Below the pieces are notes generated by a model. It was given only the letters and a program-made list of their open reading frames with translations, ran no database searches and had not been told where the DNA came from. A stretch of 64,000 nt of DNA, from positions 325-64,324 of IMG/VR virus record IMGVR_UViG_3300036985_003381. One strand, 5' to 3'. Position numbers and translations under genes: made by a program. This stretch comes from a virus. Lineage: Duplodnaviria; Caudoviricetes. Positions 7,590-54,800 of the stretch are shown here, piece by piece (within the stretch, counting starts at the first letter, position 1; the number at the start of each line of letters is the position of its first letter).

Positions 7590-8096
7590 ATGAAGAGAAA
7601 AAGCAAAATACAAATATCAAAAGAAGTATTAAAAATAGTCAACAGAGTTGAGATTGAACTTAATTATGTAATGGGAAGACCTATATCACTTATTGTTGTT
7701 GATACAAATGAAACGGCTAAGTTAAAAATAGATAAAAATGCAATGTTATTTTTATTTAAGAGAACGATTGAAGAGATATTTGATATATTACCAAATACAA
7801 TTGAGTCATATACTAGATTGCCTCCATATCCAGAATGCAGATATGCATATATGTTCTTGTATAAAAAATATTTCCCAAATGATAAATTATTACTTATTTC
7901 GCAAAGCATAGGTTTGAAAGATCATACTATGGCAGTATATGGTCTTACTAGACACAATGAATTGTATACATACGACTTAGGATATAAGAGATTATTTAAT
8001 AAGTTATTAGATAAAATTAGTGAGATTATAGATAATAATTACATAGAAGAAGAAATAAGTTATGAAAGCAAAAAAGAATATAGTGAGTTTATTTGA
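7590..8096 (+). CDS. DnaA domain IV-like helix-turn-helix protein
   Basis: R..YMFL...IGLKDHTMAVYG resembles the DnaA C-terminal RDHTTV signature. Confidence 0.6.
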   Translation: MKRKSKIQISKEVLKIVNRVEIELNYVMGRPISLIVVDTNETAKLKIDKNAMLFLFKRTIEEIFDILPNTIESYTRLPPYPECRYAYMFLYKKYFPNDKLLLISQSIGLKDHTMAVYGLTRHNELYTYDLGYKRLFNKLLDKISEIIDNNYIEEEISYESKKEYSEFI

Positions 8097-9588
8097 TGGT
8101 ATATCTTGCGCTAGACAAAGTTTAGAGCGTTCGAATATTGATGTGGGTACATATTATGCAAGTGAGATAGATAAGTATGCTATACAAGTAACTATGGCAA
8201 ACTATCCAGATACTATTCAGTTAGGTTCAGTTGTAAATGTTAATGCAAAGGAGTTGCCTAAGATTGATATGTTATTTGGTGGTTCCCCTTGTCAAAGTTT
8301 TTCATTTGCAGGAAAGCGTAAGGGTATGTCAACAAAATGCGAGACAGAGATATTAACCCTTGAACATTACTTGGAATTAAAAAATGATGGTTTTGAGTTT
8401 GAAGGTCAATCGTATTTGTTTTGGGAGTATTGTAGAGTTTTATCGGAACTTAGAATAAAAAATCCGGATATATTATTTCTGCTTGAGAATGTAGAGATGG
8501 GAGAGAAGTGGGAAAAAGTATTAAGCAAGGCTATTGGAGTGAATGGTATCCATATAAACTCCTCACTAGTATCTGCTCAGAATCGTAAGCGTATCTATTG
8601 GACAAATATTGGATTAGAACCAGCAGGATTATTTGGAGACTTAGCAAGTATAATTAAACAACCTAAAGATAGGGGTATCTTTCTAAAAGATATACTTGAA
8701 AGTGAAGTTGATGATAAATACTATTTAAGCGACAAGTTAATTGCAGGGTTTGAGAGGCACAAGGTAAGGCACGATGGCAAGGGGACAGGCTTTGCATTTA
8801 AGCCAAAGACAGAGAGCGATAGCAAGGGGAACTCTCTTAGGGCAAATGCAGCATTAGCTCCTACGGACAATATGCTAATAGTTCATAATACTCAGAGACG
8901 TGATCCAAATAGACCTGCAATTAAAAAGAATAAAAATGCTGGTGGTAGTGGTCATTTAACACGAACTGATGGTAAGACTTACTGCTTAGATAGTGGCAAT
9001 ACAAACGCAATAGAATTAGTTGGATGTATCAAATTTGGCAGAACTGATGAAGCAAAGAAAATACGAAAAGAAAGTATGAAAAATGGAAAAGATTATACGC
9101 CATTTCAAGCCAAAGAAATAACTAGTATTGATTACGATAAAATGAATACGCTTACTACTGCGATAAGTAAAGATAACCTATTAATGCAATTAAAATATCA
9201 AAAAGAGATTGAAAAATCATTATCCAATGAAAAAGCAACAACAATAGATGCAAGTTATTATAAAGGTTTTGGAGTTAGAAATGGAGCTTGTAGGCAAGTC
9301 GTTCAAGTAAGCAACAACAATAAATCTAACGGAGGAACTCAACCATACCAACAGGATAGGATTTATGACGTAAACGGTATAAGTCCTGCATTACAAGCTC
9401 AATTGCCAAATGGAAGTAATATGATAAATACCTCACGAATTAGAAGATTAACGCCATTAGAATGTATGCGACTACAGACTATGTCAGATACCTATTTGAT
9501 GCCCGTTAGCGACAGTCAAAGGTACAAGCAACTAGGTAATGGATGGACAATAGAAGTAATTTCACACATATTAAATTATATAAAATGA
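8062..9588 (+). CDS. C5 cytosine DNA methyltransferase
   Basis: Motif I SLFDGIS, IV GGSPCQ, VI ENV, VIII QNRKR, IX RRLTPLECMRLQ, X GNGW. Confidence 0.92.
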   Translation: MKAKKNIVSLFDGISCARQSLERSNIDVGTYYASEIDKYAIQVTMANYPDTIQLGSVVNVNAKELPKIDMLFGGSPCQSFSFAGKRKGMSTKCETEILTLEHYLELKNDGFEFEGQSYLFWEYCRVLSELRIKNPDILFLLENVEMGEKWEKVLSKAIGVNGIHINSSLVSAQNRKRIYWTNIGLEPAGLFGDLASIIKQPKDRGIFLKDILESEVDDKYYLSDKLIAGFERHKVRHDGKGTGFAFKPKTESDSKGNSLRANAALAPTDNMLIVHNTQRRDPNRPAIKKNKNAGGSGHLTRTDGKTYCLDSGNTNAIELVGCIKFGRTDEAKKIRKESMKNGKDYTPFQAKEITSIDYDKMNTLTTAISKDNLLMQLKYQKEIEKSLSNEKATTIDASYYKGFGVRNGACRQVVQVSNNNKSNGGTQPYQQDRIYDVNGISPALQAQLPNGSNMINTSRIRRLTPLECMRLQTMSDTYLMPVSDSQRYKQLGNGWTIEVISHILNYIK

Positions 9589-9911
9589 ACAAAAGAGAAA
9601 AAGTTATTAAAAAATTATCTCGCAATGGATTAATTTATCCACAGGATTTATTAAATACAATGCAATTCTATGACAAGAAGGATTACAAAAAAGCGTTTCC
9701 ACAAATAAAGTTACATAAAGACTGTGTCTATGTAGAGGATTATTTATTCCATATAAATATTCAGATGTTATCTGATGGTACATACTACTGCGAATTGAAT
9801 GATGCAACCGAGTCTGATGAAATGAATACAACTGTCAGAACACGAGATCGGGATAGTGCAATATATTTTATGATTATTAATTCTACAATTGTTAAATATA
9901 AACAAATTTAA
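9585..9911 (+). CDS. Hypothetical protein
   Basis: Track ORF 9543..9911; ATGA overlap at 9585. Confidence 0.65.
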   Translation: MNKREKVIKKLSRNGLIYPQDLLNTMQFYDKKDYKKAFPQIKLHKDCVYVEDYLFHINIQMLSDGTYYCELNDATESDEMNTTVRTRDRDSAIYFMIINSTIVKYKQI

Positions 9912-9928
9912 GACTATATTCGCACTAT

Positions 9929-10225
9929 ATGAAGAGTAAAATATTTGACAATTATGCAGATAATGTGGCTAACGCTTTTAGCATTACAAGGGAAGAATTG
10001 TTTTCAAAAAATAAGGACAGGGAGATATGTACTGCAAGATTTATGTTGTATTATCTGTGTTATAATAGGCAGATGATATTATCATATATAGAAAAGCATA
10101 TGCTAAAGAATGGGTACCATGTATATCACTCAACAGTTGCCTATGGTATTCGAACCATTAAAGAAAAGTTAGGTATCGATCCGGACTATGTGACATTAAT
10201 AAAAAAACTTGAACAATTAAATTAA
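9929..10225 (+). CDS. DnaA domain IV-like helix-turn-helix protein
   Basis: ELFSKNK.REI..ARFMLYYL...HSTVAYGIRTI pattern of DnaA C-terminal domain. Confidence 0.65.
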   Translation: MKSKIFDNYADNVANAFSITREELFSKNKDREICTARFMLYYLCYNRQMILSYIEKHMLKNGYHVYHSTVAYGIRTIKEKLGIDPDYVTLIKKLEQLN

Positions 10226-12092: not shown

Positions 12093-14481
12093 TACAATAT
12101 TTAAAACAATAAGGGATATAGATGCTCCATTCCATAGGGATGTGATGGTTATATTAGAGAGAATCAAAAACGGAACATCAAAAGAAATAATTAAGAAAAT
12201 ACGATTAGAAAAAAATAAAAATGAAAGAAATGAAATAAAAAAACAGTTGGTTGCTATTTGTTTTAGCGGAAAATTTAATAAGAGGGCTGACAGTTCTATT
12301 ATATCGCATTCCGGTTTAATATGTTTAGATTTTGATGGATATGTAAAGCAAAAGGATTTGCTAGTAGACAAAGAAATTCTATCTAAAAACAAGTTTGTAT
12401 TTAGTGTATTTATTTCTCCGTCAGGTAATGGGTTAAAGGTGTTAGTAAAAATACCACCAATAACAGATAACCATGTAAATTATTTTAATTCATTAGAGAA
12501 ATATTTTGATTCTCCATATTTTGATAAGACGAGCAAAAATATAAGCAGAGTTTGTTATGAGTCTTATGATCCATTAATTTATATAAACAGTGATTCAGAG
12601 GTGTGGGAAAAGATTGAAGAGTATAATCATGTTGAGATTAATAAATTTAAAGATAAGCCAACAATCCCAATTAGTGACGAGAATAAGATTGTAGATATAC
12701 TTATTAGTTGGTGGACTAAGAAGTATCCAATGGTTGAAGGCTCAAGAAACCAAAATGCATACATCTTGGCTATGGCACTAAATGACTTTGGAATTAATAA
12801 GAGTTTGGCAATGTTTGTACTAACCCAGTATGCGACAGATACATTTAATGAATTTGAGGTTAAGACAGTAATTGACTCAGCATACAAGAACACGCAAAAT
12901 TTTGGCACCAAGTATTACGAGGATGAGCAGAGGATTAACTCTATTAAAGAGAAACTGAAGAGAGGTGTGCCAAAAAAGGATATCCGCATCCAACTGCAAG
13001 ATTCCAATTTGGATAGCGATGTAATAGAGGCAGTTTTAAATAGGGTTGATGAAGAAAACCAAAAACTAACCTTTTGGAATAAGAATGAGAAGGGTGCCGT
13101 ATCAATGGTACACATCCAATTCAAATCATTTTTAGAGTACAATGGATTCTATAAGTACTGCCCTGAAGGTAGTAAGAGTTATGTATTTGTAAGAGTTACT
13201 AATAATTTGATTGACCATACAAGCGAAAAAGAGATAAAGGACTTCGTTTTAAGCTACCTAATCGAGTTAGATGACGTTAAGGTATATAATTACTTCGCTG
13301 ACCAAACAAGGTTCTTTAAAGAGGAGTTTATGTCGTTAATTTCTACAGTAGATATTTACTTCATGGAGGACACTCAACATACAGCTTACTTGTACTATAG
13401 AAATTGTGCAGTAAAGATTACCAAGGATAGTATTGTTACCATAGATTATATTAACCTTGGAGGATTTGTCTGGAAAGACCACATAATAGATAGGATATTT
13501 AATATATGTGCTGTTACAGGTCGTTGTGACTATAAAACATTCATTGCTAATATTTGCTACAAGGATGAGGATAGGATTAAGACAATGGAGAGTACAATTG
13601 GGTATTTGCTACATGCACATAAGAACCTATCGTTTTGTCCTGCGGTTATACTAAATGATGAGATTATTAGCGATAATCCTAATGGTGGGACAGGTAAGGG
13701 GTTATTTATGAATGCACTAAGTAAAATGAAGAAACTTGTTGTTATTGATGGGAAGTCGTTCCTATTCGAAAGGTCGTTTGCATACCAACTAGTTTCAGCA
13801 GATACACAAATTCTATGTTTTGATGATGTTAAAAAATACTTTGATTTTGAAAGACTATTTAGTATTGTAACCGAAGGTCTTACATTAGAAAAAAAGAATA
13901 AGGATGCTATCAAGATACCATTTAGCAAGTCACCTAAGATTGCTATAACTACAAACTATGCTATCAAAGGGTCAGGTAATTCATTCGCACGAAGGAAATG
14001 GGAACTTGAACTACACCAGCATTATAATGAGAACTATAGCCCTCTCGATGAATTTAAGAAACTAATGTTTAGCGATTGGTCAGATATTGATTGGTGCGAA
14101 TTTGATAACTATATGATTCAGTGCTTAACCGGATATTTAAATACAGGTCTTGTTAAGTCTAAATTTGTTAACTTAAATATCAGACAATTATCAGCTGAAA
14201 CTTGCCATGAGTTTATTGAATGGTGCGGATTACTAGATAATCAAGAGCAAAATCAAATGCTAGAGGTAGAGACAAGGTTATATAAAAATGATCTATATGC
14301 TGCTTTTATTGAAGAATATCCAGACTATGGTCCAAAGTCAAAAATGACCATAAGTAGAACTAGGTTTTATAAGTGGTTAATATCTTACTCAATGTATAAA
14401 GAAAATACAATGCCTGAAGAAGGGAGAGACTTAACAGGTCGTTGGATGATTATTAGAAGAAAAAAGGATGCAGTTGATTGA
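12079..14481 (+). CDS. Primase-helicase (BT4734/VirE-N AEP domain, PriCT-like region, P-loop NTPase)
   Basis: HSGLICLDFD, FISPSGNGLK, RVCYESYDP; EGSRNQ; Walker A GGTGKG and Walker B CFDD. Confidence 0.85.
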   Translation: MTYDITIFKTIRDIDAPFHRDVMVILERIKNGTSKEIIKKIRLEKNKNERNEIKKQLVAICFSGKFNKRADSSIISHSGLICLDFDGYVKQKDLLVDKEILSKNKFVFSVFISPSGNGLKVLVKIPPITDNHVNYFNSLEKYFDSPYFDKTSKNISRVCYESYDPLIYINSDSEVWEKIEEYNHVEINKFKDKPTIPISDENKIVDILISWWTKKYPMVEGSRNQNAYILAMALNDFGINKSLAMFVLTQYATDTFNEFEVKTVIDSAYKNTQNFGTKYYEDEQRINSIKEKLKRGVPKKDIRIQLQDSNLDSDVIEAVLNRVDEENQKLTFWNKNEKGAVSMVHIQFKSFLEYNGFYKYCPEGSKSYVFVRVTNNLIDHTSEKEIKDFVLSYLIELDDVKVYNYFADQTRFFKEEFMSLISTVDIYFMEDTQHTAYLYYRNCAVKITKDSIVTIDYINLGGFVWKDHIIDRIFNICAVTGRCDYKTFIANICYKDEDRIKTMESTIGYLLHAHKNLSFCPAVILNDEIISDNPNGGTGKGLFMNALSKMKKLVVIDGKSFLFERSFAYQLVSADTQILCFDDVKKYFDFERLFSIVTEGLTLEKKNKDAIKIPFSKSPKIAITTNYAIKGSGNSFARRKWELELHQHYNENYSPLDEFKKLMFSDWSDIDWCEFDNYMIQCLTGYLNTGLVKSKFVNLNIRQLSAETCHEFIEWCGLLDNQEQNQMLEVETRLYKNDLYAAFIEEYPDYGPKSKMTISRTRFYKWLISYSMYKENTMPEEGRDLTGRWMIIRRKKDAVD

Positions 14482-15913
14482 AAGAGATTACGGACATAAT
14501 AACCAAATGATGTATGAGTCTTGTCTTAGGTTGCAGAGAGTTATTAATATTAGCACAACTGAGACAAAACGTGGTAAGATAGAAATAAAATTAAAACATA
14601 AGACAGACATCGAAACAGTAAATAAAATTAATATGAGTTGTGAGCATTATAGATTACTGTCGGAGCGTGACCTGAAAAGACATTCTGAGTTAATTCTTAG
14701 AGACTATCAAATTGATATAACTAATAAGGCAATTGATATAATTAATAGGCATGGATTTGTTTACTTAGCTATGGAAGTTAGGACAGGAAAAACTTTTACT
14801 TCACTATCTATAGCAGAGGATTTAATGGTTAAAAATGTATTGTTTATTACTAAGAAGAAAGCGATATCAGGTATTAAAAAAGATATAAATCATTTTTTAC
14901 CAATCTATAACATAGAGGTAATAAATTATGAGAGTTTGCATACTGTTGAAAACAATCATATATGGGATTTAGTAATATGCGATGAAGCTCACAGTATGGG
15001 AGCATTTCCTAAGCCAAGTATAAGAGCGGTTTCTGTAAAAAATATTTTAAAAAAAACAGGATGCAAGACAATATTCCTTTCAGGAACGCCAACTCCAGAA
15101 TCATACTCACAGATATATCATCAAGTATATGGTGTTGCATTAAATCCATTTAGAGGATTTTCTAATTTCTATAAATTTGCAAATGAATATGTCAATGTAG
15201 TACAAAGAAATATTGCTGGAAATAAAGTAAATGACTATTCAAATGCATTGAAATCCATAATTGATGTAATGAATCCATATACTATTAGTTATACTCAAAA
15301 AGAAGCAGGATTTTTAAGTGAAATAAAAGAAGAGATATTGTATATAAAACTAAAAGAGTCTACCTATAATATAATAAATAAATTAAAAAAAGATTTAGTT
15401 GTTAAAGGGAAAGATGAAGTCATACTAGCAGATACATCCGTAAAACTTATGACTAAAATACACCAACTATGCTCAGGAACAGTAAAGTTTGAGAGCGGCA
15501 ATTCAATAGTACTAGATACAAGTAAGGCAGAGTTTATTAAAAATAATTTTTTGGGATGTAAGATTGGAATATTTTATAAGTTTAAGGAAGAACTAAACGC
15601 ATTAGAAGAAATATTCGGTGATGAACTTACTACCGATCTTGAAGAGTTTGATAATACAAATAAGAACATAGCCCTACAGATTGTATCCGGGAGAGAAGGT
15701 ATATCACTAAAGAATGCTGACTATTTGGTTTACTATAACATCGATTTTAGTGCTACAAGTTATTGGCAATCTAAGGATAGAATGACTACCAAGGAAAGAC
15801 CTGCTAACCAAGTCTATTGGATATTTTCTATTGGTGGTATTGAAAAAGATATTTACAAGCAAGTATTAAATAAAAAAGATTATACATTAAACCATTTCAA
15901 AGAATCATTATGA
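14468..15913 (+). CDS. SF2 (SNF2-like) helicase
   Basis: LRDYQ, RTGKT, DEAH, SGTP, QSKDR motifs. Confidence 0.85.
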   Translation: MQLIERDYGHNNQMMYESCLRLQRVINISTTETKRGKIEIKLKHKTDIETVNKINMSCEHYRLLSERDLKRHSELILRDYQIDITNKAIDIINRHGFVYLAMEVRTGKTFTSLSIAEDLMVKNVLFITKKKAISGIKKDINHFLPIYNIEVINYESLHTVENNHIWDLVICDEAHSMGAFPKPSIRAVSVKNILKKTGCKTIFLSGTPTPESYSQIYHQVYGVALNPFRGFSNFYKFANEYVNVVQRNIAGNKVNDYSNALKSIIDVMNPYTISYTQKEAGFLSEIKEEILYIKLKESTYNIINKLKKDLVVKGKDEVILADTSVKLMTKIHQLCSGTVKFESGNSIVLDTSKAEFIKNNFLGCKIGIFYKFKEELNALEEIFGDELTTDLEEFDNTNKNIALQIVSGREGISLKNADYLVYYNIDFSATSYWQSKDRMTTKERPANQVYWIFSIGGIEKDIYKQVLNKKDYTLNHFKESL

Positions 15914-16248
15914 CATTAAAGCCAATAAATAAAGAATTTATTTTGACACATGGATTTTCTGATCCTGTTAGATATTTTGATGAAGAGATGCAGCAATTTC
16001 GTGTCTATTACGAAATAGAAGGATATTCATCTCCAATACTTATAAGTCCAGTCCCTCGTATATATCGCAATATATCTATAGAGAGTCAAATTGATAGATT
16101 TTCAGATATTAAGACTATAGAGAAAAATAGTGATGAACAATGGAATATTTTTGTAAAGTCATTAGACAACCATTTAACAACATTTCATTACCAAGAAGAA
16201 TTATTAAATTTAATGATGATTTGTGGAAGACCATTAAACGTATTTTGA
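15910..16248 (+). CDS. Hypothetical protein
   Basis: ORF, ATGA overlap. Confidence 0.65.
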   Translation: MTLKPINKEFILTHGFSDPVRYFDEEMQQFRVYYEIEGYSSPILISPVPRIYRNISIESQIDRFSDIKTIEKNSDEQWNIFVKSLDNHLTTFHYQEELLNLMMICGRPLNVF

Positions 16249-16294
16249 ACCAACAATTAAACAAAAAAATTAAATTAATTATAAAACAAAAAAA

Positions 16295-16549
16295 ATGGAA
16301 AACATTAACAGAATTATCGAAACGTTTAAAGACGAGAAAGAAATTATTATTATTTGTAGTAAAGAATTAGCTTTAAAACTCAATCAGGAGATAGCTGATT
16401 TTACTACAAATATAGATGGTCAAGCAGGATTGTTTAAAAACCAAAACAAAATAGATTTAGGATTTAATTCTATTTTTAAAAATGGAGTAACACTACATTA
16501 TACAAGTGATTTTCCAAAGTTCATTGAAGGCATTAAAAATATGGACTAA
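16295..16549 (+). CDS. Hypothetical protein
   Basis: ORF with A-rich start. Confidence 0.65.
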   Translation: MENINRIIETFKDEKEIIIICSKELALKLNQEIADFTTNIDGQAGLFKNQNKIDLGFNSIFKNGVTLHYTSDFPKFIEGIKNMD

Positions 16550-16603
16550 TACAAGAACTAAAGTAGGGGCAAAATACTATTTTAAAATGTAACGTAGTAT
16601 TTG

Positions 16604-16734
16604 CCCTAACGTATGGTGCTATAAGAAATAGCGGATTTTGAAAACGAAAATTTGAATTATGCAGATAAGTTTATTTGAAAACGAAATGTTGAATATAGCA
16701 CAGAACCCGCTATTTCTTATAGCACATGTTAGCG
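16604..16734 (+). other. attC-like recombination site 1
   Basis: CCCTAAC, 5 nt, 19-bp perfect arm (16616-16634 / 16707-16725), 2 nt, GTTAGCG. Confidence 0.65.
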
Positions 16735-17360
16735 GTTGTTCTTTTCCAAAGATTATCCTTCACTTATGTGCTGATTTAGGTAGCGATAGTTTGTTTTATC
16801 AATTATCTGATGAATACGAAGTAATAATGATAGGCGAAGAAATAGGCGTTGAAAATTACAATCCACCGCCTAATGTTTGGGGAATAATTGCAAACCCTGT
16901 ATGCACCGAATTTTCAACAGCAAACGGATTTCATAAAGAAAATGATTTAGAAAAAGGAATGTTTTTAGTAAACCACTGTTTGAGAATTATTGAAGCTGCA
17001 AAGCCTAAATGGTGGGTAATTGAAAACCCTGCAAATGGTAGATTAAAAGAGTTTTTAGGCAAACCAAAACTTGTTTATCAACCTTGGGAATATGGAAGCC
17101 CTTGGACTAAAAAAACAGGATTGTGGGGTGAATTTAAGATACCTACAAAGAAATATACTGATTGGAATAAAGTGCCTAAAAACGATAAACTTTATATAAG
17201 ACCAGGACGCCCAAAACCTGCACTTGCATTTTTACATAAATCAGCAGTTGATTTAATACCCGAAATGCAATGGGCAAAAGATAAAATAAAATGTGATGCT
17301 GATATTCGTTCAATGTGTTCTGCTGGATTTGCAGAGGCGTTCTTTCAGAATAACCGCTAA
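16659..17360 (+). CDS. Small C5 DNA methyltransferase-like protein (cassette cargo)
   Basis: NPVCTEFS (motif IV-like), IENP (VI), KKTGLWG; motif I is divergent (LCADLGS); stop TAA lies in the TAAC of site 2. Confidence 0.65.
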   Translation: MQISLFENEMLNIAQNPLFLIAHVSGCSFPKIILHLCADLGSDSLFYQLSDEYEVIMIGEEIGVENYNPPPNVWGIIANPVCTEFSTANGFHKENDLEKGMFLVNHCLRIIEAAKPKWWVIENPANGRLKEFLGKPKLVYQPWEYGSPWTKKTGLWGEFKIPTKKYTDWNKVPKNDKLYIRPGRPKPALAFLHKSAVDLIPEMQWAKDKIKCDADIRSMCSAGFAEAFFQNNR

Positions 17361-17448
17361 CGGTTGGGTGTATGAGAAGGTTTGCTTAGACGAACTTTCA
17401 AATTAACACTACTGTTAATAGCAAACTTTCTTATACACCTTGTTATGT
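17355..17448 (+). other. attC-like recombination site 2
   Basis: CGCTAAC, 5 nt, 20-bp arm with two G-T pairs (17367-17386 / 17420-17439), 2 nt, GTTATGT. Confidence 0.65.
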
Positions 17449-17516
17449 GTAGTAATTTTGTGGGTAGGAGTTGGATTAAAATACAATTTTAAATATTTAT
17501 ATATAAAAATAAAACC

Positions 17517-17762
17517 ATGAGTAAAGAAATGAGAGAACAAATAAATAAAGTAAAGAACTTCGAACAGTTCTTGAATGAAAATATTGAACAAAATAAATGT
17601 GTTTGTATAAAAAACATTAAATTTAAAAATGGTATGAATTATTTTAAAGACTTTACTTATACTTGTGAAATGAATATAGATAAAGTGTCTGTTGCTTATG
17701 AAGATGGTAGATTTACAACAATGGGTAATGATGTTTTTGATATTCATTTTCAAGTAATCTAA
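17517..17762 (+). CDS. Hypothetical protein (cassette cargo) with KNFEQFLNE leader
   Basis: 81-aa ORF wholly inside cassette 17442-17795. Confidence 0.7.
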   Translation: MSKEMREQINKVKNFEQFLNENIEQNKCVCIKNIKFKNGMNYFKDFTYTCEMNIDKVSVAYEDGRFTTMGNDVFDIHFQVI

Positions 17763-17829
17763 TTGTGGGTTGATAAAAAAATTATTACACATAACTAATC
17801 GGTGAGTATTAAATAACTAAATACTAATT

Positions 17830-18030
17830 ATGCAAATAACAGTTAATTACAATTTAAAATGGCAGCTAAAATCAGCCCCGAATTACCAGTTTACAGACAA
17901 TGGAATTTGCATCAATACATTAAGAGGCAAACAAGTAAGAAAAGTAGTTGTAAGCGGAACTAAAGGTTATTGTATCAACGGTAAATTTAGAAGTGTATTG
18001 CAGTTAAGAAAAGAATTAATTAAGATTTAA
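17830..18030 (+). CDS. Small basic protein, weakly NUMOD4-like
   Basis: W..K..PNYQF...G...N pattern; weak. Confidence 0.55.
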   Translation: MQITVNYNLKWQLKSAPNYQFTDNGICINTLRGKQVRKVVVSGTKGYCINGKFRSVLQLRKELIKI

Positions 18031-18253
18031 AAAGAAATATTACCATTTTAGAACGTTTCTAAATTACTTAAACCAACAAATAATTAAAACAATATCTCTT
18101 AATTTGAATTATGAAATTTAAAGCACTTAGGAAGTTTAGCAGGCAACAGGTGGTGGGACATCTGAGTAAAATGGGTAAAGTAAGAATTTATACCATTGAG
18201 GGGATTGATTATACAATAACTGAATTTAAAAAACATTTTAATAAATTTGAACT

Positions 18254-18505
18254 ATGAACATACAAAACATTTTTAAACCAAAACCAAAATTTAAGACATG
18301 TACCCTAGCAATAGCCGACCACTTTAAAAGAAACGGTAGTTTAAGCCAGTTGGAGTGTTGCCAGTTATTCCTTAATTGGAATCTTCACAAAGTTGTGGAC
18401 CGTTTAAATCGACACCACAATATGAATTTTGAAAAAACTAAAAAACTTATCAAGACCAGGTACGGTAAAACAACTGAAATCGTAACATATCATTTAATAA
18501 GATGA
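18254..18505 (+). CDS. Winged helix-turn-helix protein (HTH_39-like)
   Basis: I.DH..RNGSLSQLE....F....L...V.RL..TRYGK....YHL pattern. Confidence 0.6.
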   Translation: MNIQNIFKPKPKFKTCTLAIADHFKRNGSLSQLECCQLFLNWNLHKVVDRLNRHHNMNFEKTKKLIKTRYGKTTEIVTYHLIR

Positions 18506-18538
18506 TTGAAGTTTATAAAAAAGCAAACAAATAACAAC

Positions 18539-18775
18539 ATGATACAACCAACAAAACAAGAACTAAAAACAAAGATTATCGAACTAAATGAACTACTTCG
18601 TAGAGAGATTAAAAACATTATATATCACCAAGAGTTGACTGAGAATATGAGGGATAAGATGATTAGGGGAGACAAGTTAAACCAAATCCTTATGATAAAA
18701 ATTAGTTCTTTAGAATATGCAATTAAAGAATGTAATAAATCCTGGTGGAAGAAAATGTTTTCTAAATTATTCTAA
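18539..18775 (+). CDS. Coiled-coil hypothetical protein
   Basis: Track ORF 18506..18775; ATG at 18539; ends SWWKKMF. Confidence 0.6.
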   Translation: MIQPTKQELKTKIIELNELLRREIKNIIYHQELTENMRDKMIRGDKLNQILMIKISSLEYAIKECNKSWWKKMFSKLF

Positions 18776-19014
18776 TGACTGAGCAGCAAATACAATCTAA
18801 GCATATAAAGAAATTAGAGGCTGAAGGATACTATGTTATAAAGCTTATTAAAACAAATAAGAATGGTATACCTGATTTAATCGCAATACCAAGGAATGCT
18901 GATGTCTTATTTGTGGAGGTAAAAACGCCAACAGGAGTGCTTTCTAAGTTGCAGGAGTATAGATTAGAGGAACTTAAATTGCATGGTCTTAAAACAGACG
19001 TTTATAGGGGATGA
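18775..19014 (+). CDS. VRR-NUC nuclease
   Basis: TE..IQ, GIPDL, FVEVK, LSKLQ motifs. Confidence 0.88.
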   Translation: MTEQQIQSKHIKKLEAEGYYVIKLIKTNKNGIPDLIAIPRNADVLFVEVKTPTGVLSKLQEYRLEELKLHGLKTDVYRG

Positions 19015-19400
19015 TACAATTTGAATCTAAAGAAAATATAGCAAGGAAAAATAAGTCAATGGATGTATTCATTAATACATTCGGTGGAATTTATAAGAAA
19101 TCTGAATCCTTAGAATATAAAATACTGAATATAAATGGGGACCTAATTGCTTATTCAGAAGTAATTATATCCCCAAATGTTATAAGATACGCTTATCCAT
19201 TATCAATTACCATTACCAGGTTTAACAAGTTGATATCTAAGCGGCTTAATCCGGTACTCATTTGGTCGTGTGACGATGGTATTATATACGCTAAAGCTAT
19301 GAACCTAATTGGTACAATAAAATATGATAAACTTTTATCTGACTTTGTAATATACTTTGACAAACAAAAGGAGTTCAAATATATTAGGTATATAAATTAA
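19011..19400 (+). CDS. Hypothetical protein
   Basis: Last ORF of + arm, convergent with the giant gene (4-nt overlap). Confidence 0.7.
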   Translation: MIQFESKENIARKNKSMDVFINTFGGIYKKSESLEYKILNINGDLIAYSEVIISPNVIRYAYPLSITITRFNKLISKRLNPVLIWSCDDGIIYAKAMNLIGTIKYDKLLSDFVIYFDKQKEFKYIRYIN

Positions 19401-22400
19401 AAATTTTCATTAATTGCATCATCTATTTCTTTATCAATATTTTCAATTTCTTTATAAATTTCTTTATCAATATCTTCAATGCTACTGCTTTTAGAAGATG
19501 TCTTTTTCGTTAATTGTTTTTCTGTTTTCCCTTGTTTTTTGATAATTGCAAGTTCTCTTTTGGATATAGTTTTAACATCCGTTGGGACTAATTTTAGCAT
19601 TGAAACAGAATTTAACAATAAAAGTAATGGCAATTTATTTACATCTTCATCTGATAATGTTTTAGTATTACCATAATCATCTACAAATTGTTTAGTATAA
19701 ATCATTTTAGACAATTTATATAATCCCATAGCATCTTCTGCTGCTATACCCAATATCCCTGCTTGTTTAACAAAGTCTTTTGGCTTTGCTTCAAACAACA
19801 ATAATCTTTCTTTTTCTGGCTTGTCCATTTGCAACATATTTGCAATATAATTTATTCCAAATGTTACAGCAGGGTCTGTTAAAGGAACAGGAGAAAGCAT
19901 ATCGGCTGCAAGATTTGTAATTTGCCCTTTATAAATATTATTTAATCTTTTTTGTTTTTCTTCTTCATCGTCATCTCCACCCCATATTGAATTAGTGATT
20001 GAATCTAGTAATGCAGTTGTACCTATCGACACCAATCTAAATGCAGCAGCTTCTACTGCAAATCCTGCTAATGACTTTGCTGCTATTGCCTTGTCTTGTT
20101 TAGATGAAGTAAAACTTGTAAGTGTAGTTACATCATTTATCAATCGTATAGACTGATTTATTCTGAAATTAGCAAAAGCAAATATTGTTTTTACTACAAT
20201 CGTTCTGTATGCATCATTTTTAGTAAATAGCATTCCTCCCAAGTCCGGATCGGATATGTTCTGTTGTCTGTTAACCATTCTTGTAGCATAATTTTTAGCA
20301 TCCTCGTTATATACATTAAAATCAAATTTTATTTTATTTTTACTCAAATAATCTTTGTAGTATGTAAACCACGATGCCCTAGCAATAAATACATCAGGTT
20401 TTTCAAGCAACCATTTAAGTTGAAATTCTCCCAATTTTTTTATATATTCTAATTGCTTTATTCCAGATGAATTATTTATTAAATCTTCTAACTTATTTGA
20501 TTTAGTTATTTGAGCCTCAGATGCCATTGACCTATTTGCAACTGTTGTACCTGAATTATCAATAAAATCTCTAATTTGTTTATTCCAAATATTTCTAATG
20601 TCTAACCCATTTGCATTAATTATTGTATTAAATGCCAATGGCACTACTTGTTTAACAGGTTGAGATAAACTTGTAAGTGCGGATGCAACTCCTATAGATG
20701 TAATACTATTTAATTTATTTATTGCTCTTGATAACTGTTCATTATTTATATTATTTTTATTTCTTGTAAGTTTCACATAATGATTTACTCTTGATTTTAA
20801 TAAATTTCTATCATTTTTATTTGGTATAATATTAGACATATTTTCCATAAAAGCTTGAAGTTGTCTTATAGGACCAGCCGTTTTTATATCTATCAATGCA
20901 TCATACATTGAATTTACATTATTTGTATCAAACGATAAATTTATATATGAACCTTTTGGTAGAGGTTTATGTTGTGCTTTTTTAAGTGACCCTGACTCCT
21001 CTTTATATAATGTCCCAGGTCTAAAATTATTTGTATTAAATACTGACTGAGTTTGTTCGATATCTAATTCTTTTTTTAATTCTGTATTTAGATATCTCGC
21101 AGGGGTATAATTAGATTCTCTCTCTAATATTTCATTGTAAATACTCTTAGAAACATCGTTCATTTCATCAAACTTGCTGTCCCATTTGTTTACCCAAAAA
21201 AGTACAGCCTCCCCATTTATTGAACTAACTTTACCTTCAATATCTTCAATGCTTTCGGCATCTTTAAGTATCTTATTATATACCTTTTTATATAGCTCCC
21301 CTAATCTGTTTTCTTCTTCTGAACTTTTATCATTTGTAAGATATTCTATAGAGTCTATTATATCGTTTTTGCTTCTTATAAAATCATCTTCCATTTGCTC
21401 ATTTGTGCCAATAATTGTTCTTAGCATATGTGCATACATACCACGTTCTACAATATTTTCTTCATCAAAAAAATCTTTCCCATTTGGTTTTGTGTCTCCA
21501 AACTCTTTAGTATACTCTACAGCAAACTTTTTTACTTCACTTGTCGCTTCAGCCTTCCCATTTACAACGCTTGAAATACCGCTCTTATCTTCAAAAATAC
21601 CCCCCCTTATAACCCCTTTAAACATTTTCTCTATTAAAGATGGTAGAGAGGAAAGTTGTTCATATGCCGCCCCTCCTATAACCCCGGAGAAATATAATTT
21701 AATTTTACTAGATATTAATTTGTTTTTTTCAAGTTCCAACGAATTTTTCAATCCTGTATATTCATAAAAAACAGACCCTATTTTTGCAATAGACTTATTC
21801 TGTATAAAGTTCTGCAATGCATCCACCGCATCAATAACTGTCTTTAAATCCAATAAAGACAAATCCATACTCATAAATTTCTTTATAGTTTGCTCTTCAG
21901 AAGCTGTCAGTTCAAATATATCACCACTAATAGGTTCTGTTCCAGTACTAATTATCTTATTTATTATTGCTGAAAAAGAATCAAATCTACCTTTAGCCTT
22001 TTTTCTAAATAAGCCTTCATCTTCTTTCTTTATAATTAATTTATCTTCTTTAATTAATTTGATTATTTGATTATATGTCATACCAGAAGTATCATCAATT
22101 CCAAATAATTCTTCTAATTGTTCTGATGCTCTATTAAATAATATTCTATCCTGAATTTTTTTTACTGTTTCAATATATTTTAAAGTAGGTACAATATCTA
22201 TAATATCAACAAAATTATCTGATGATTTTGTTCCGGTTATAGACTCTTTTAGTTGCGTTGCGATACTATTATACCTGTCTATATCCTCTACTAACGATGT
22301 GTCTAGTTCTAAGAACTTTTTTGCTAATGCCCTTAAATCAGCATTTTTAGATTTATTAGCAGCTAGTTTTGCTATTTGTTTTTTTATTTTATTGGCAGCA

Positions 22401-49424: not shown

Positions 49425-51860
49425 TTACCTAGGACCAAATTGGTCAAATGCAAGACCATCTAATGTATCTTCGTTTGATTCAAAGTTTTTAGGTGGTAAA
49501 TTATTTTTCTTTTGATTTATTAATTCAGACTGCTCGGTATTTTGTTGGCTTATTCTATTTGATTTTGCGTCTTCCTTTTGTTGTTCTCTTGTTTGTGTAA
49601 AGCTATCTTTATTTGAAGTTAATTGCATATTGTAGTCAAATTCTTGAGCCATAAGCTCCTTTTTAAGGAGAGCCTCTTTCTCTAATAATTTAATTGAAAA
49701 TAACGATTTAGCTTCAGCAATTTTTATTTCAGCATCAGATTCCATTTGTATTTTCTGCATTGCTGTTTGTGCTGCCATCTGTTGAGATTGCATATTCTGT
49801 TGAGATACCATTGCTTGCTGTTGCATTTGCATTTTTTCCTCTCTGTCCATCTTCTTTAATCTTTTCATTTTTAAAAGTTGGTTAGCAAGTTTCAGGTTTT
49901 TTATCTCACGAATATCTATAGCATCTTCAAGATTTATATCGGCTTTTGATAATGCTATTTGAATATTAGCCTCTAATTGAGCCTTTTGTTCTTCATCTGG
50001 AGATATTTCAATGAATATACCAAAATCATAAATATATAAATCCTTTATATCGTTTAGTATCGACACATTGTATTTACCAATTTTATTAGCAAAGTCATCC
50101 TTAAAATCTGCATATTGGAGTATGTCTGATATCCTATATGTTAAAGCCTCTGCTAATGTTCTAAACACATATATGCTTGAATCTAAAATATGTCTTGTTG
50201 CTGTATTTGAATTTAATGCTGCTAATTTCTGAACACCAACTAAAGCATTAGGGTCAGGGGTAGAACCATCTCTAGCCTCATTTAGTCCTGTTACAGAACG
50301 AATCATATTTAAGTAGTGGTCATAGTTAGCTAACAACATCTGTGTCTTACTTGCACCTGAGTTAGATGTTAGCTGAGTTATGGGGACCCTTGCATTATTA
50401 AATTCACCATCTTGAGTATATGAGCGACCTATAACACTACCTGTTTGGAAGTAAAGTCTCAATGCGTCTTCCGGGTTATATGCTGCACCTGTACCTAAGT
50501 CTACTTCATTAAGCCCATCTGCATCTATAAAAACTCCATCAGGCACAACTCTTGCCATAACCTGTTGTAATTTTAGGTGAGTTATTTGAATCATATCAGC
50601 AAAAGGTATCATTCTGTTTACTAACGACTCAATACTCCCCTTATACATCCGTGGAGCGCAAGCAACATAGTTTGGTAATGCATGCTGAGATGAAGATTTC
50701 GGTCTAACCATATTCTCCATTTTCTCCCATTTTAAGATAATATTACTACCCATTACCATAATACCTGAATACCACACATCAATAGTTTTTTCAAGCTTCT
50801 CAAATCTACCCTCCTCCATCATTTCTGCTGGGGGGTTGAATTGGTCATCCTTTTTAACCATCTTAGTGCCACCACTTTCTAGTAATTTTTTCTTATAAAC
50901 AACCTTTTCTGTTGTTTTATAATTGTAATATAATAGAGTACAAGTATCATTATGGAATATACTGTTTTCATAAAATTGAGAAACATTATAATAGTCGTAC
51001 CAAGACTGACTATATTGAGATATTGTTTTTAAGTCTTCTGGTGTAAGAGATTGGTCAATTTTCATTAACTCTGTTATTGGGAGAGTTTTAATCTCACCCC
51101 AATAAAAACAATCTTTAAAGTACGGGTCTTCAGTATAACTATATACTATATTAGCCGGATCGACATATGATATTTGAACACCTGCTCCAGGAAGAAAATC
51201 ATGCTTTGCTACTTCTATCCCAATTACAGTGGCATCATAGTCAAGTCTAGTCCTTATTTCATTGAAATGATTTTCATCAAACAAAGTATTAATTGCCTCC
51301 TCCTCTGCTATTTCTATTGCAGGTTTATATTTTAGCTGCATATATAATGACAATTCCTCGTCAGTATTCGGCAAATCTTCGGGCTTAGTCACAAATGGAT
51401 TTATTCCCGTATTTTCATGTATTATGTTTAGAACATTTTTAGCAATCATTTGACCCTCAATCATATCTTGATATCTGGTCCTGTTAGTTTGGGACATAGC
51501 ATCCTGTGCATATGCCTTAACTTTAAATAGCCTATCAGACATACCATTTACTACAATATCCACAAATTTCGGGATAATAGGAACAGGTGTCCAGTCTAAG
51601 TTTAAATACGATAAGTCACCATTTACGGATAACTCATTTTTATATTTTTGAATTGATTGCTCACCCCTTGCGTATAGCCTTAATTTCCTAAAATCTTTCC
51701 ATTGACTGTAATATCTGCATTGAGCTCCATCTTTTCTAAACCACTCATATTGTATTGCCTGACCTATCTGCAAACCATACGCATCTGTCCTTTTCTCACT
51801 ATCAGAAACAAATTGTCCGGGGAATCCAAGTGAGGATATATCTATCGTTACATCTTTCAT
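49425..51860 (-). CDS. Portal protein
   Basis: 811 aa directly after terminase; PIIPKFVDIVVNG, TGLNEARDG, Gln-rich C-terminal coil. Confidence 0.85.
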   Translation of the reverse strand: MKDVTIDISSLGFPGQFVSDSEKRTDAYGLQIGQAIQYEWFRKDGAQCRYYSQWKDFRKLRLYARGEQSIQKYKNELSVNGDLSYLNLDWTPVPIIPKFVDIVVNGMSDRLFKVKAYAQDAMSQTNRTRYQDMIEGQMIAKNVLNIIHENTGINPFVTKPEDLPNTDEELSLYMQLKYKPAIEIAEEEAINTLFDENHFNEIRTRLDYDATVIGIEVAKHDFLPGAGVQISYVDPANIVYSYTEDPYFKDCFYWGEIKTLPITELMKIDQSLTPEDLKTISQYSQSWYDYYNVSQFYENSIFHNDTCTLLYYNYKTTEKVVYKKKLLESGGTKMVKKDDQFNPPAEMMEEGRFEKLEKTIDVWYSGIMVMGSNIILKWEKMENMVRPKSSSQHALPNYVACAPRMYKGSIESLVNRMIPFADMIQITHLKLQQVMARVVPDGVFIDADGLNEVDLGTGAAYNPEDALRLYFQTGSVIGRSYTQDGEFNNARVPITQLTSNSGASKTQMLLANYDHYLNMIRSVTGLNEARDGSTPDPNALVGVQKLAALNSNTATRHILDSSIYVFRTLAEALTYRISDILQYADFKDDFANKIGKYNVSILNDIKDLYIYDFGIFIEISPDEEQKAQLEANIQIALSKADINLEDAIDIREIKNLKLANQLLKMKRLKKMDREEKMQMQQQAMVSQQNMQSQQMAAQTAMQKIQMESDAEIKIAEAKSLFSIKLLEKEALLKKELMAQEFDYNMQLTSNKDSFTQTREQQKEDAKSNRISQQNTEQSELINQKKNNLPPKNFESNEDTLDGLAFDQFGPR

Positions 51861-54800
51861 TTTATAATTTGACTTGTGTTTCCACCATTATTATACCTTG
51901 CAAAATTAATACTTATTTTACTCTCTTGTTTATTAGGCAAATATAAATGTTTTTGGTTAGCCATTATTACTAATCCGGAACTAATAGATGCGTCAAATTT
52001 TGTTCTATCATTAATATCGAATTTTACCCAATCTTGCAATGTTTTTTGGAATGGCATACACCCTATTTCGTCAGAATTTCTATATGTCCCTAGTGAGTCA
52101 TATCCAATATGTTTTTCTATATATGTTTCAATTGCAGATGCGTGTGATTGTTTAATGTCTTCAGATGAGTTTGGTATACCTCCCAATTCACGCTCAGTAT
52201 TACTTAATTTAGATGATGGTTTATCAGGTCTATTCATAGAATAGCCCCTATATCCTCTATTTTTAAAGTGATAAAGTAATCGTGGCTTATTGTTTTCTGC
52301 AAGTATTGGCATACCATAAAATACACAAGCCATGAGAATATCTTCAAAAAATATCTCTGCCGTTTGAGGTCTTGCTATATATTCAAGAAAGAACTCATTT
52401 ACGGGAGCATCATCCATATGCATTTTTGTCATCCCGTGTAATGAACCATTAGACCCTCCCCCACCCACTACAGCAGATATATCGTATGGATCACACCCAA
52501 AACTCCCGATATGTTCGTTCCCTGGATATTTCATCCCATTTCTTTGCACTACTCTATTCTGAAGATTTTTCGATGGCATCCAACCCACTAAAAAATTACC
52601 TGTATTGTCGGGGGTCCATATAACTGTTGAATCTTTAACCCCATCCTTCCAGTGAAACCTGCCTTTAGTTGTAATTTGACTTAGTATTGTAGAGTCGTTG
52701 TAATCTATTTGTTCGTATAGTTTTGTAAGATTAAATAGTGACGTTTTACTATCGTCTCTAAATGCGTGACCTTCTGTTCTAGGAAATTGTCTATAATGTT
52801 CATTTAGTGCATTTGAGTCTTTCTTTAATGAATCAATTTCAGCTTCCCAATAATCAATAGCTCCATTAGTAATTTTATTACCATCTACACCGAGTATGGC
52901 GGTCTTTGGCTTTCGGAATACAGGCATACCGTATCTATCAATAAACCCTTCCATATTCCATTCCATAGGAATAAACAATGAATATAATCCTGACTTAGTT
53001 TGACCGTTTGCGTTTCTTATTGTTACATTAGAATCATAAAAAAGAGTTTTATAATTATCTCCACCTTTGCTAAGTGCATTGGATGTTGAACCCATCATAC
53101 ATTTACCAATAATTTTAGACCCTAATCGTAAACAGGTTTTAGTTATACCCCAATTATTTAAAATATTGTTAGGTTTTAGCCATTTTGCACTATTCATACT
53201 TATAGTAAAGTCCGAAAGAATTAATTTTCTTTCATCATCATTATCTGCATCAACTTGAATACCTATATATTCTCCTTTGTCAAGATACTCTACAGATACT
53301 TTATTTCGCCTGCCTGTACTTATTGGTTCGTAATCTTCAAACGATTTCTTTTTTGTTATTAAAGGTATTCTTGATAATTCTCCCGATAAACTTATTCTAT
53401 AAACTTCTGTATTATAATTTGATTTATAATTTTGTATATTCCCACAACTTATCCCACAAGAAAGAGCTAATATCCTTATTTGTTCTATTAAATCTTTTCT
53501 GCTCATTCCAATAGAGATTACATTCTTTTTTTTATCAGAGTATCCATCTGTCTCAATCAATCCTGCTAACAATTGAAGTCTTGATTCGATTGAAGATTTC
53601 ATATAGCAATCAGGTATGTGTTTATTGTTATAAACCCCAATGTCCCTTAATTCAGAATTTATTCCTTTAAATGCAAATTCAATAATCTTAGCAGAGTCTG
53701 ATTTCTTTAATTCAAAAGGAATCTTTTTCATTTGAGCAATCATTCCTAAATACTCTAATATTTCAGGTTCTTCTTCTTTATTTACAAGTATTGTAAAAGA
53801 TGATGATCTACCATCTCCAAGCCATAAGCCTAAAAGATATGGAGGCATTCCTTCAAATTTATCTGACATTTCAATGCCCTTAGAAACAACCCTTGTTAGG
53901 TGCTTCTTAACATAAGATGATTTACCTAAATATTCTTTAGGCATCATTATAACCTCTTCGTGCCTTTTGCTTTTGTTTCTTGAGTTAAATATATACCTGT
54001 TAAATACTAATCTATGGTTTTCTGTTACAATATAATCTTGACCGTATGGTTGCTTAACTAAGTATCTATTAGTTTGACCTGATACTTTTTTCATCACAGT
54101 TTTGATTTTTCCTCCTTCAACTATTACTTTATCCCCAATATTAATTTCTTTTATAGGTTTAAATTCAAAATTTTCAGTAAGAATTAATGTGTCAGGAGCA
54201 TAACACTCATCATGTGCTAAATAAAGTAGCTTCTCTCCATCATAAGAGTTGTCTTCCGTATTCTTCCAATCTATAGTAGTATCTAATCCTTGGATTTCAT
54301 TATCCTCAGTTTCATACATATTATTTTTTGTAATCTTTTTTGCAGGTATTTTGTAAGAGAGTTCTGTTTTAGGTTTATCCATACCATCCATAATAGGGGT
54401 AAAGAAAAACGGAAGTTTACTGTTTATTGGTACCACCTTGTCGGTAAACATTTTCTTAGCATCAGCACCTGTCTTAGACAGTATACCAACTCTAGCATTT
54501 TTAGCAAGTGTTCCAAGATTTACAGCCTCTGATGAACACATAAATGAGAATCCCGAACGCCTGATTTTTAAATATATCATACCGTAAGACCGTATATCTG
54601 CTTTACAAGCTTCCCAAAATATATAAAATATTCTATTAGCCTCTCTAAAGTCTGGATATCCAATATCTATACTTGACCACTGCATATACATCCAATGAGA
54701 CCCTGTTATATAGGTAGGCTCACCATTGTTCATAAACCAATAGCCATTTTCACGGTAATCAAACTGAGCCTCTATATAGTCTACCCATTTATTTTTAAAT

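Follow-up and report, generated by a model that had tools for sequence, protein, structure and literature searches.

Integrons combine an integrase (IntI), an attI site and gene cassettes bounded by attC sites, and sedentary chromosomal integrons carry near-identical attC copies. In CTX-phi, XerCD acts at dif on an attP hairpin that is folded from one strand of the phage DNA. Here we describe a probable gene-cassette array built on long hairpins, which lies at positions 16563-17795 of a 64,000-nucleotide stretch of virus DNA (hereafter the window; the 64,324-base IMG/VR record IMGVR_UViG_3300036985_003381, 100% complete by CheckV, minus 324 bases). In the parts of the report by Qi et al. (2023, Front Microbiol, PMC9892861) drawn on here, 17 clusters of attC sites lacking an integrase (CALINs) are described in phages, including one in Polaribacter phage P12002L that holds two methylase genes, and one P12002L site recombined with attI1 in Escherichia coli in an IntI1-dependent manner. 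For the promoter early stem-loops (PeSLs) of T4-type phages, modular shuffling by way of mini-circles has been proposed, according to the passages that concern them in Arbiol et al. (2010, PMC2839356) and Comeau et al. (2014, PMC4122927).

We consider it likely that a phage-borne, integron-like cassette system is represented at this locus by a short orphan array, which comprises two intact cassettes and one gutted cassette. The case is built on the anatomy of the array, on covariation and strand-specific wobble, and on exact breakpoints, the occurrence of the sites in unrelated phages and their linkage to a recombinase. Each cassette would consist of a folded site placed ahead of its cargo, the cargo being closed by its own inverted repeat (GTTA followed by Y at the start, and Y' followed by TAAC at the end). 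The array is laid out as follows:

16563..16610, + strand: gutted cassette; a GT(T)A-like start and Y0 (16567-16579), which pairs with Y0' (16594-16606), then TAAC (16607-16610)
16607..16731, + strand: hairpin site 1 (attC-like); TAAC 16607-16610, GTATG, arm 16616-16634, 72-nt loop 16635-16706, arm 16707-16725, AT, GTTA 16728-16731
17358..17445, + strand: hairpin site 2 (attC-like); TAAC 17358-17361, GGTTG, arm 17367-17386, 33-nt loop, arm 17420-17439, TT, GTTA 17442-17445
16611..17361, + strand: cassette 1, the exchanged unit; hairpin 1, GTTA-Y1 16728-16742, methylase open reading frame (ORF) 16659-17360, Y1'-TAAC 17347-17361
17362..17795, + strand: cassette 2; hairpin 2, GTTA-Y2 17442-17459, 81-aa ORF 17517-17762, Y2'-TAAC 17778-17795

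That two hairpins of one shared geometry occupy these places, as an earlier note on this DNA had claimed, is borne out by reading, by folding and by a strict scan for the geometry. Both hairpins fold as DNA at -23.3 kcal/mol (z = -4.6 for site 1 and -5.7 for site 2), and none of 200 shuffles folds as well. The strict scan, whose detector requires exact TAAC/GTTA cores and ungapped arms, finds two sites on the + strand of the whole window and none on the - strand; 30 shuffled windows gave 7 matches, both strands taken together. A relaxed scan of the window (AAC/GTT cores) returned 24 matches against 23-43 in shuffles, with nothing further above background, and hairpin sites 1 and 2 alone reach 15-16 of 16. 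A GTTA/TAAC repeat at 17966-18220 (12/14), considered as a further unit, is at chance level. The distance between the two sites is 627 nt, and their core contexts (CCCTAAC/GTTAGCG and CGCTAAC/GTTATGT) fit RYYYAAC/GTTRRRY in part. An Rfam identity was rejected for 15500-19500, where even at E up to 10 the only matches were CRISPR-DR47 (20 bits) and snR76 (17.7 bits), neither of which came near its gathering score. Promoter-like matches numbered 19, against 21.5 expected.

The ends of each unit pair with themselves, as had also been noted. In cassette 1, 16728-16742 and 17347-17361 are complementary at 14/15 positions (13/14 across the first 14 nt), and in cassette 2, 17442-17459 and 17778-17795 are complementary at 17/18. 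The suggestion that the stop codon of the cargo falls in TAAC holds for cassette 1 (TAA at 17358-17360) and not for cassette 2, whose stop is at 17760-17762. The loop of hairpin 1 carries the methylase ATG (16659) and roughly its first 16 codons. Only 14 nt are left between the arms of the gutted cassette, which nevertheless fold at -8.6 kcal/mol (z = -4.2, 0/200 shuffles as good), and its 3' half (CGTAGTATT..C.TAAC) is similar to the cassette end ahead of the homologous hairpin in L122, a locus from a 169-kb viral contig.

Sites of this kind recur in other phages. In 27 Flavobacterium siphophage records, the 5' ends of methyltransferase genes show a match of 82-84% to the loop and right arm of hairpin 1; alignment of these with hairpin 1 reveals a conserved loop and conserved TAAC and GTTAGC flanks, but arms that are unrelated in sequence yet complementary. 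The Flavobacterium siphophages carry arrays of 6-12 sites (10 in hemulen6-1, 12 in sniff9-1) between nearly every gene of a leftward early operon, and each GTTA+Y start of a unit is complementary to its own Y'+TAAC end. Three sites of the same geometry lie on the gene strand of P12002L, and the L122 locus holds 23 sites within 20 kb. The phages that share the sites span crAss-like podophages (the window), 38-kb siphophages and contigs of 120-170 kb, and on this evidence the sites appear to be common property of many unrelated Bacteroidota-type phages.

From the window and 92 loci (93 sources), we assembled a pooled set of 150 distinct sites and 89 distinct cassettes. In this set, 54 of the 89 own Y/Y' pairs reach at least 12/16 Watson-Crick matches, far exceeding the non-own pairs (117/4948). 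Since cassette ends differ from one another and yet pair, recognition would be by single-strand structure and not by duplex sequence, and only pairing appears to account for the covariation of the cassette ends. The arms of the hairpins behave likewise: among 13 homologues of hairpin 1, compensatory change is seen in 14/19 arm pairs and 95.6% of cells are paired, a value that 0/500 shuffles equal and that slid controls (30-48%) do not approach, and TAAC and GTTA are unchanged in 13/13.

Across the family, the outer stem measures ~15-18 bp and extends 11-14 bp past the core, the inner stem measures ~19-20 bp, with spacers of 5 nt on one side and 1-2 nt on the other. The hairpins are less regular than the first description of them implied. 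No obvious extrahelical bases had been seen, whereas the 5-versus-2 spacers of the window leave three surplus unpaired bases on the 5' side, and this spacer bulge is joined by further fixed irregularities, namely an A.C mismatch at arm position 4-5 and G.T pairs both at arm positions 8-14 and at position 11 of the outer stem. In the pooled inner arms we counted 2023 Watson-Crick pairs, 244 G.T, 65 A.C (coding strand) and 68 others, with clusters of A.C at positions 4-5 and of G.T at 8-14; outer-stem position 11 is G.T in 51/54 well-paired cassettes. These fixed non-Watson-Crick pairs appear to mark one strand.

The hairpin would also have a role in expression, judging from the reading frames that cross it. 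In the window and many relatives, the array loop supplies an ATG and a ~28-aa leader, in-frame with methylases of differing families, and in L035 the same loop class closes as a 31-aa upstream ORF that ends 2 nt ahead of the cargo ATG. A paired swap of both arms around an unchanged loop (window versus L091) was considered and rejected. Loops of the hairpin-1 class are ~80% alike even before unrelated genes (82% between the window and mumin6-1), and whole-hairpin swaps within one loop class therefore suffice.

The borders of the exchanged units can be read from relatives of the cassettes. Twenty-five viral contigs (4.7-143 kb) encode proteins related to the 233-aa methylase, with 58-92% identity over most of its length. 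At the nucleotide level, homology to the window stops at 17361, the C of TAAC, in seven loci (L095, L096, L098, L099, L102, L116 and L117) and 1-4 nt from this position in six further loci; in L095 and L099 it starts at 16726, two bases ahead of GTTA. Hairpin 2 alone (17357-17448, 89%) lies inside the 23-site array of L122, which ends at a recombinase gene, and the hairpin 2 module is found at 86.7-93.5% in L182, L184, L186, L189, L190, L192 and L193. The 3' end of cassette 2 is matched in L187, L189, L190 and L195, and all four matches stop exactly at 17795. In L189, the hairpin, Y2, the leader and the first 22 codons of cassette 2 are present at 90%, after which the sequences diverge.

Contigs of four metagenomes (X1, possibly the source sample of the window record, X2, X3 and X6) were compared with 16200-18200. 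X2 contains the hairpin-1 and methylase unit at ~99% identity (2 differences over 483 nt, 3 over 264 nt). The X2 copies of cassette 1 meet unlike DNA at 16607 and 17362, and the DNA past 17362 resembles another hairpin arm; 17362 is also where an X3 contig stops and where an X6 contig departs from the window. In X2 and X3, the DNA from 17791/17792 onwards comes after a different cassette end. In the metagenome contigs, the depth over hairpin 2 is 7-18 times that of its flanks, and hairpin 2 is therefore multicopy.

Sister phages differ by whole units. An additional hairpin-plus-gene unit is inserted immediately after TAAC in sniff9-1 relative to hemulen6-1, mumin6-1 and mumin6-3 differ by a 506-bp unit with TAAC borders, and a four-gene block occupies differing array positions in mumin and snork/sniff. 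The expectation that relatives would show precise indels is thus supported as far as units are gained and lost at exact cores; the predicted crossover at G/TT of the coding strand is not, as the most recent breakpoints sit at TAAC instead. From these borders, the recently exchanged unit appears to be a hairpin with the gene downstream of it, cut at TAAC, and because the most recent breakpoints lie at TAAC, the hairpin would belong to the downstream gene. Folding of the circle junction was rejected as a test of hairpin ownership, because both models fold alike (-33.7 versus -32.1 kcal/mol for cassette 1).

Two further observations concern the array in the metagenomes. The region of a 66-aa ORF at 17796-18050, past the last TAAC, has a counterpart of ~95% identity in X2, where the DNA to either side (from 17791 and 18050) is unlike that of the window; this region, which has no family hairpin ahead of it, may be a cassette with a degenerate site. 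Furthermore, an X1 contig (depth 4.7) joins 17455 to 17358, giving hairpin 2, ~10 nt of Y2, TAAC and hairpin 2 again, which could be an empty unit between hairpin copies or an artefact of assembling a multicopy repeat.

Tyrosine recombinases were sought with PF00589 in six frames. None is present in the whole 64,324-base record, in agreement with the earlier note, which had seen no integrase, and none was found in mumin6-1, hemulen6-1, P12002L or the L035 and L050 contigs. Because its phage lacks a tyrosine recombinase, the window array would be an orphan mini-array. Three of five further carriers do encode one (the L122, L094 and L115 contigs). In L122, a 298-aa recombinase ORF begins 19 nt after the TAAC that closes the last cassette, and it is 42% identical to the recombinase of L094. 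The catalytic residues (R, H-x-x-R, H and Y) are invariant in three aligned sequences. The enzyme is below all NCBIfam cut-offs, its best match being XerA_Arch (206 bits versus a cut-off of 220); with 171 bits for XerD (cut-off 330) and 163 for XerC (cut-off 335), it is Xer-like and neither XerC nor XerD. TIGR02249 (integron integrase) matches it in two pieces that leave out profile positions 181-238, the IntI-specific insert.

A single-protein search of viral contigs gave 2 recombinase loci, whereas the three-sequence alignment gave 50. Around these 50 viral loci there are 84 same-strand sites upstream (in 240 kb), 0 same-strand sites downstream (in 395 kb) and 4 sites on the other strand. 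An upstream site is present in 29 of the 32 loci that have at least 1500 nt upstream, typically one cassette length (0.45-1.6 kb) ahead of the recombinase gene for the closest one. The terminus of the array, Y'-TAAC followed by a conserved TACTATATGTAT-type (ATATGTA-type) motif, is seen in 33/41 loci, 47-209 nt before the start of the tblastn match to the recombinase, and this TAAC..ATATGTA motif is a candidate attI-like site. No such ATATGTA-type motif follows 17795 in the window. In bacterial assemblies, mostly of Bacteroidota, the link is looser, with 18 sites lying upstream of the recombinase loci, none downstream and 13 on the opposite strand. With covariation, breakpoints at the cores, unit indels between sister phages and this polar linkage to a recombinase, the idea of a distinct hairpin cassette-exchange family in Bacteroidota-type phages, put forward in the earlier note, has gained support.

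We propose the following mechanism. In an excised circle, Y'-TAAC and GTTA-Y would stack beneath the hairpin to form one long imperfect hairpin, with an outer stem of ~15-18 bp, a 4-bp TAAC/GTTA core, a bulge of 5 versus 1-2 nt, an inner stem of ~19-20 bp and a variable loop; this structure would be the counterpart of the integron attC. The reconstituted circle junctions fold at -33.7 (cassette 1) and -31.4 kcal/mol (cassette 2), versus -23.3 kcal/mol in the array. The likely enzyme is the Xer-like recombinase of other phages' arrays, which would act at TAAC of the folded coding strand, and the cassettes of the window would be mobile only if a co-infecting phage or the host provides the recombinase. 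As enzyme and terminal motif are both absent, the window array would be a passive store unless a recombinase is supplied. On the non-coding strand, the system would read recombinase, terminal site, G|TTA, cargo, TAAC, hairpin, G|TTA. Because the G|TT rule holds only on the non-coding strand, the cargo genes would be inverted, and in that reading the coding strand, which folds best here, is presumably equivalent to the attC bottom strand.

The alternative that survives best is that the hairpins and Y/Y' pairs act in mRNA only, while the genes are shuffled in a PeSL-like manner by homologous or illegitimate recombination at repeated structured spacers. We think this unlikely, although it accommodates several findings: every site is on the coding strand, the loops hold start codons, a leader peptide or the 31-aa upstream ORF of L035, one hairpin is a hybrid, breakpoints occur at both cores, and the recombinase is absent from many carriers. 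The mismatches speak for both sides, as those of the coding strand are mostly G.T (244 versus 65), which RNA pairing tolerates, whereas the conserved A.C at arm position 4-5 destabilises RNA. What the alternative does not explain is the strict polarity of the sites towards one recombinase family (84 upstream versus 0 downstream), the conserved motif at the array end, and near-identical copies that break at one nucleotide position of an invariant core. Neither hairpin resembles an intrinsic terminator; a T run is absent, the loops of 33 and 72 nt are long, and the single terminator-like match lies at neither site, so that the plain terminators named in the earlier note as grounds for refutation are not what is found.

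A second alternative, which we regard as improbable, is that these are ordinary attC sites, a CALIN derived from a bacterial integron and served by canonical IntI. P12002L, whose CALIN contains the site that recombined with attI1 under IntI1 (Qi et al. 2023, PMC9892861), has three sites of the present geometry on its gene strand, and this alternative assumes that the attC calls in the cited parts of that report are equivalent to our sites. Integrons, too, have AAC...GTT cores and cassette ends that are complementary. The recombinase at the array end is instead below the NCBIfam cut-offs and is matched by TIGR02249 without the IntI insert, the ORFs are inverted relative to integron site polarity with the hairpin preceding the gene and giving its start codon, and the outer stem reaches 11-14 bp past the core. 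Finally, it is very improbable that the units or hairpins are transposon-like, moved by an IS200/IS605 or REP/RAYT single-strand transposase or akin to miniature inverted-repeat transposable elements (MITEs), for although the hairpins adjoin a fixed tetranucleotide, hairpin 2 is multicopy and each unit has terminal inverted repeats, a tyrosine recombinase adjoins the arrays (no such transposase turned up there, in work that included no search aimed at one), the arrays are head-to-tail and polar, not dispersed, and no target duplication beyond the core was present in the sequences read.

The integron-like cassette system that we prefer has its own difficulties, which include the G.T excess, for which mRNA folding would account equally well, and the hybrid hairpin just mentioned. 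Only 2 of 11 carrier records checked have the Xer-like enzyme (L122 and L094), 8 have neither kind, and the L115 contig has a different tyrosine recombinase, of 417 aa, ~2 kb past its array; an upstream site is present in just 11 of 60 bacterial recombinase loci. The borders are not confined to TAAC. Hairpin 1 alone (16607-16748, 91%) stands ahead of a different gene in L118-L120, which implies breaks at GTTA too; at least 9 different hairpins are joined at GTTA to the methylase body, which carries its own Y end; and in one hairpin of mumin6-1 the left and right arms belong to two different families. GTTA and the insides of loops therefore appear to be further places of exchange, at any rate in the longer term. 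A single fixed crossover is insufficient, and either homologous exchange involving similar hairpins or use of both strands has to be assumed as well. The shuffles behind the geometry scans, of the window, the Flavobacterium phages and the window relatives, are mononucleotide shuffles, and because the detector demands exact cores and ungapped arms, the site counts are lower bounds. The metagenome comparison used assembled contigs and not reads. Folding of single-stranded DNA, circles, catalysis by the Xer-like enzyme and action in trans are steps that we infer.

By Pfam, the window phage is of a crAss-related podophage type, as marked by a T7 gp14-like protein, the C-terminal domain of a muzzle protein and a 4577-aa ORF. 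The 233-aa ORF of cassette 1 (16659-17360) matches PHROG 757 (DNA methyltransferase; E = 1.8e-27), and its name as a methylase rests solely on PHROGs and on annotations in other phage records. Neither it nor the 81-aa protein encoded at 17517-17762, the cargo of cassette 2, has a Pfam or NCBIfam match, or a relative of solved structure at E up to 1. The methylase cargo probably has an anti-restriction function.

Several features of the phage and its cargo stand apart from the array itself. The leader and first 22 codons of the 81-aa ORF (MSKEMREQINKVKNF...; window 17478-17585) are found with 71-91% protein identity in 15 of 18 contigs (L178-L195), and in six inspected loci the frames run on from this N-terminus into differing proteins; the 5' leader and N-terminus thus look like a portable module. 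A second methylase, a 508-aa C-5 cytosine DNA methylase (8062-9588, + strand; PF00145, E = 2.5e-41), lies outside any cassette. The ORF at 62746-63993 (- strand) matches the Cpn60/TCP-1 chaperonin family (E = 4.5e-31), and on the basis of this match the phage appears to encode a chaperonin-like protein. A 1101-aa ORF at 51857-55162 (- strand) has Hint, homing-endonuclease and LAGLIDADG domains within residues 320-595, and because of these domains it is probably a large virion-region gene with an intein.

The array occupies the space between two genes recognised by Pfam:

14468-15913: SNF2/ResIII helicase
18775-19014: VRR-NUC nuclease

In the phage's own family, represented by 80 relatives found through the helicase, this gap (15913-18775 in the window; compared in L010-L089) is hypervariable and ranges from 2 bp (L064 and L066) to ~2.7 kb (L033). 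None of the 80 relatives has homologues of the window's eight small ORFs in 15910-18772. The insertion borders are therefore unreadable from sister genomes, and we took them from relatives of the cassettes and from metagenome contigs. Sites occur in only 4/80 members of the family (L035, L050, L084 and L068), in all cases between helicase and VRR-NUC. In L035 and L050, the GTTATG of the last hairpin overlaps the start codon of the core VRR-NUC gene and remains with it, and the cassettes ahead differ. L050 also has, at 8913-10022, a GIY-YIG-type endonuclease gene (~9000-9787) flanked on one side by 72 nt that duplicate the 5' end of VRR-NUC and on the other by the complete VRR-NUC gene, an arrangement that looks like a homing-endonuclease insertion with partial target duplication.

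On balance, and with confidence only slightly above even, we favour the view that unrelated Bacteroidota-type phages share a pool of accessory genes by means of an IntI-independent analogue of the integron, consisting of a Xer-like recombinase with an attI-like site, folded coding-strand sites that give translation starts, and orphan arrays, that of the window among them, served in trans during co-infection. If true, this would be a dedicated engine that trades anti-restriction methylases and other small genes between viruses. In phage mosaicism, the exchange of single accessory genes is usually credited to undirected recombination; exact borders, folding sites, a ~99% identical cassette elsewhere and a recombinase at the array end point to site-specific gene trading among viruses. 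Such trading would explain the fast gain and loss of methylases and other host-interaction genes by lytic phages. It would also explain why IntI1 recognises some phage sites (Qi et al. 2023).

Full-text searches of the literature gave no description of a Xer-like recombinase with such phage arrays, and the closest work in print is that of Qi et al. (2023, PMC9892861). The present array resembles the phage CALINs of that report in being an integrase-less cluster of attC-like sites with methylase cargo, of the kind described in virulent phages. In the parts cited here, the report treats them as canonical integron parts, and a Xer-like recombinase, a terminal motif, inverted genes and the breadth of the family are not described. 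As in PeSLs, stem-loops stand between small accessory genes in hyperplastic phage regions. Unlike here, PeSLs are, in the passages cited, conserved regulatory sequences that recombine by homology and have no dedicated recombinase; in the present family the arms vary but covary, each gene has its own closing repeat, and a tyrosine recombinase is linked. The combination typical of a PeSL, a terminator-like stem-loop of shared sequence with an early promoter, was not found, and the arms differ between sites. With CTX-phi, the system would share a Xer-type tyrosine recombinase and a folded single phage strand, as we propose here, but CTX-phi integrates a whole phage genome at chromosomal dif, whereas here the subject is a gene-cassette array.

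The likeness to integrons is extensive. It includes head-to-tail, mostly single-gene cassettes, imperfect AAC...GTT hairpins, self-pairing cassette ends, irregularities that mark the strand, a tyrosine recombinase with a distinct terminal site at one end, and orphan arrays. As in an integron, the 5' end of a cassette is complementary to its own site, both in the window and in the pooled set; a crossover at G|TT of the 3' core, with attC after its gene, is not what we observe, since the breaks lie at TAAC. The arms measure 19-20 bp, whereas attC has short L boxes. The recombinase is Xer-like without the IntI insert and lies downstream of the array, oriented with the cassettes; the ORFs are inverted relative to site polarity, with the hairpin before the gene and often giving its start codon; and the outer stem of 15-18 bp, the spacers of 5 versus 1-2 nt and the phage carriers are further differences. 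Overall, the system is integron-like in its working, yet by its lack of the integrase insert and by the orientation of its cassettes it is not an integron sensu stricto.

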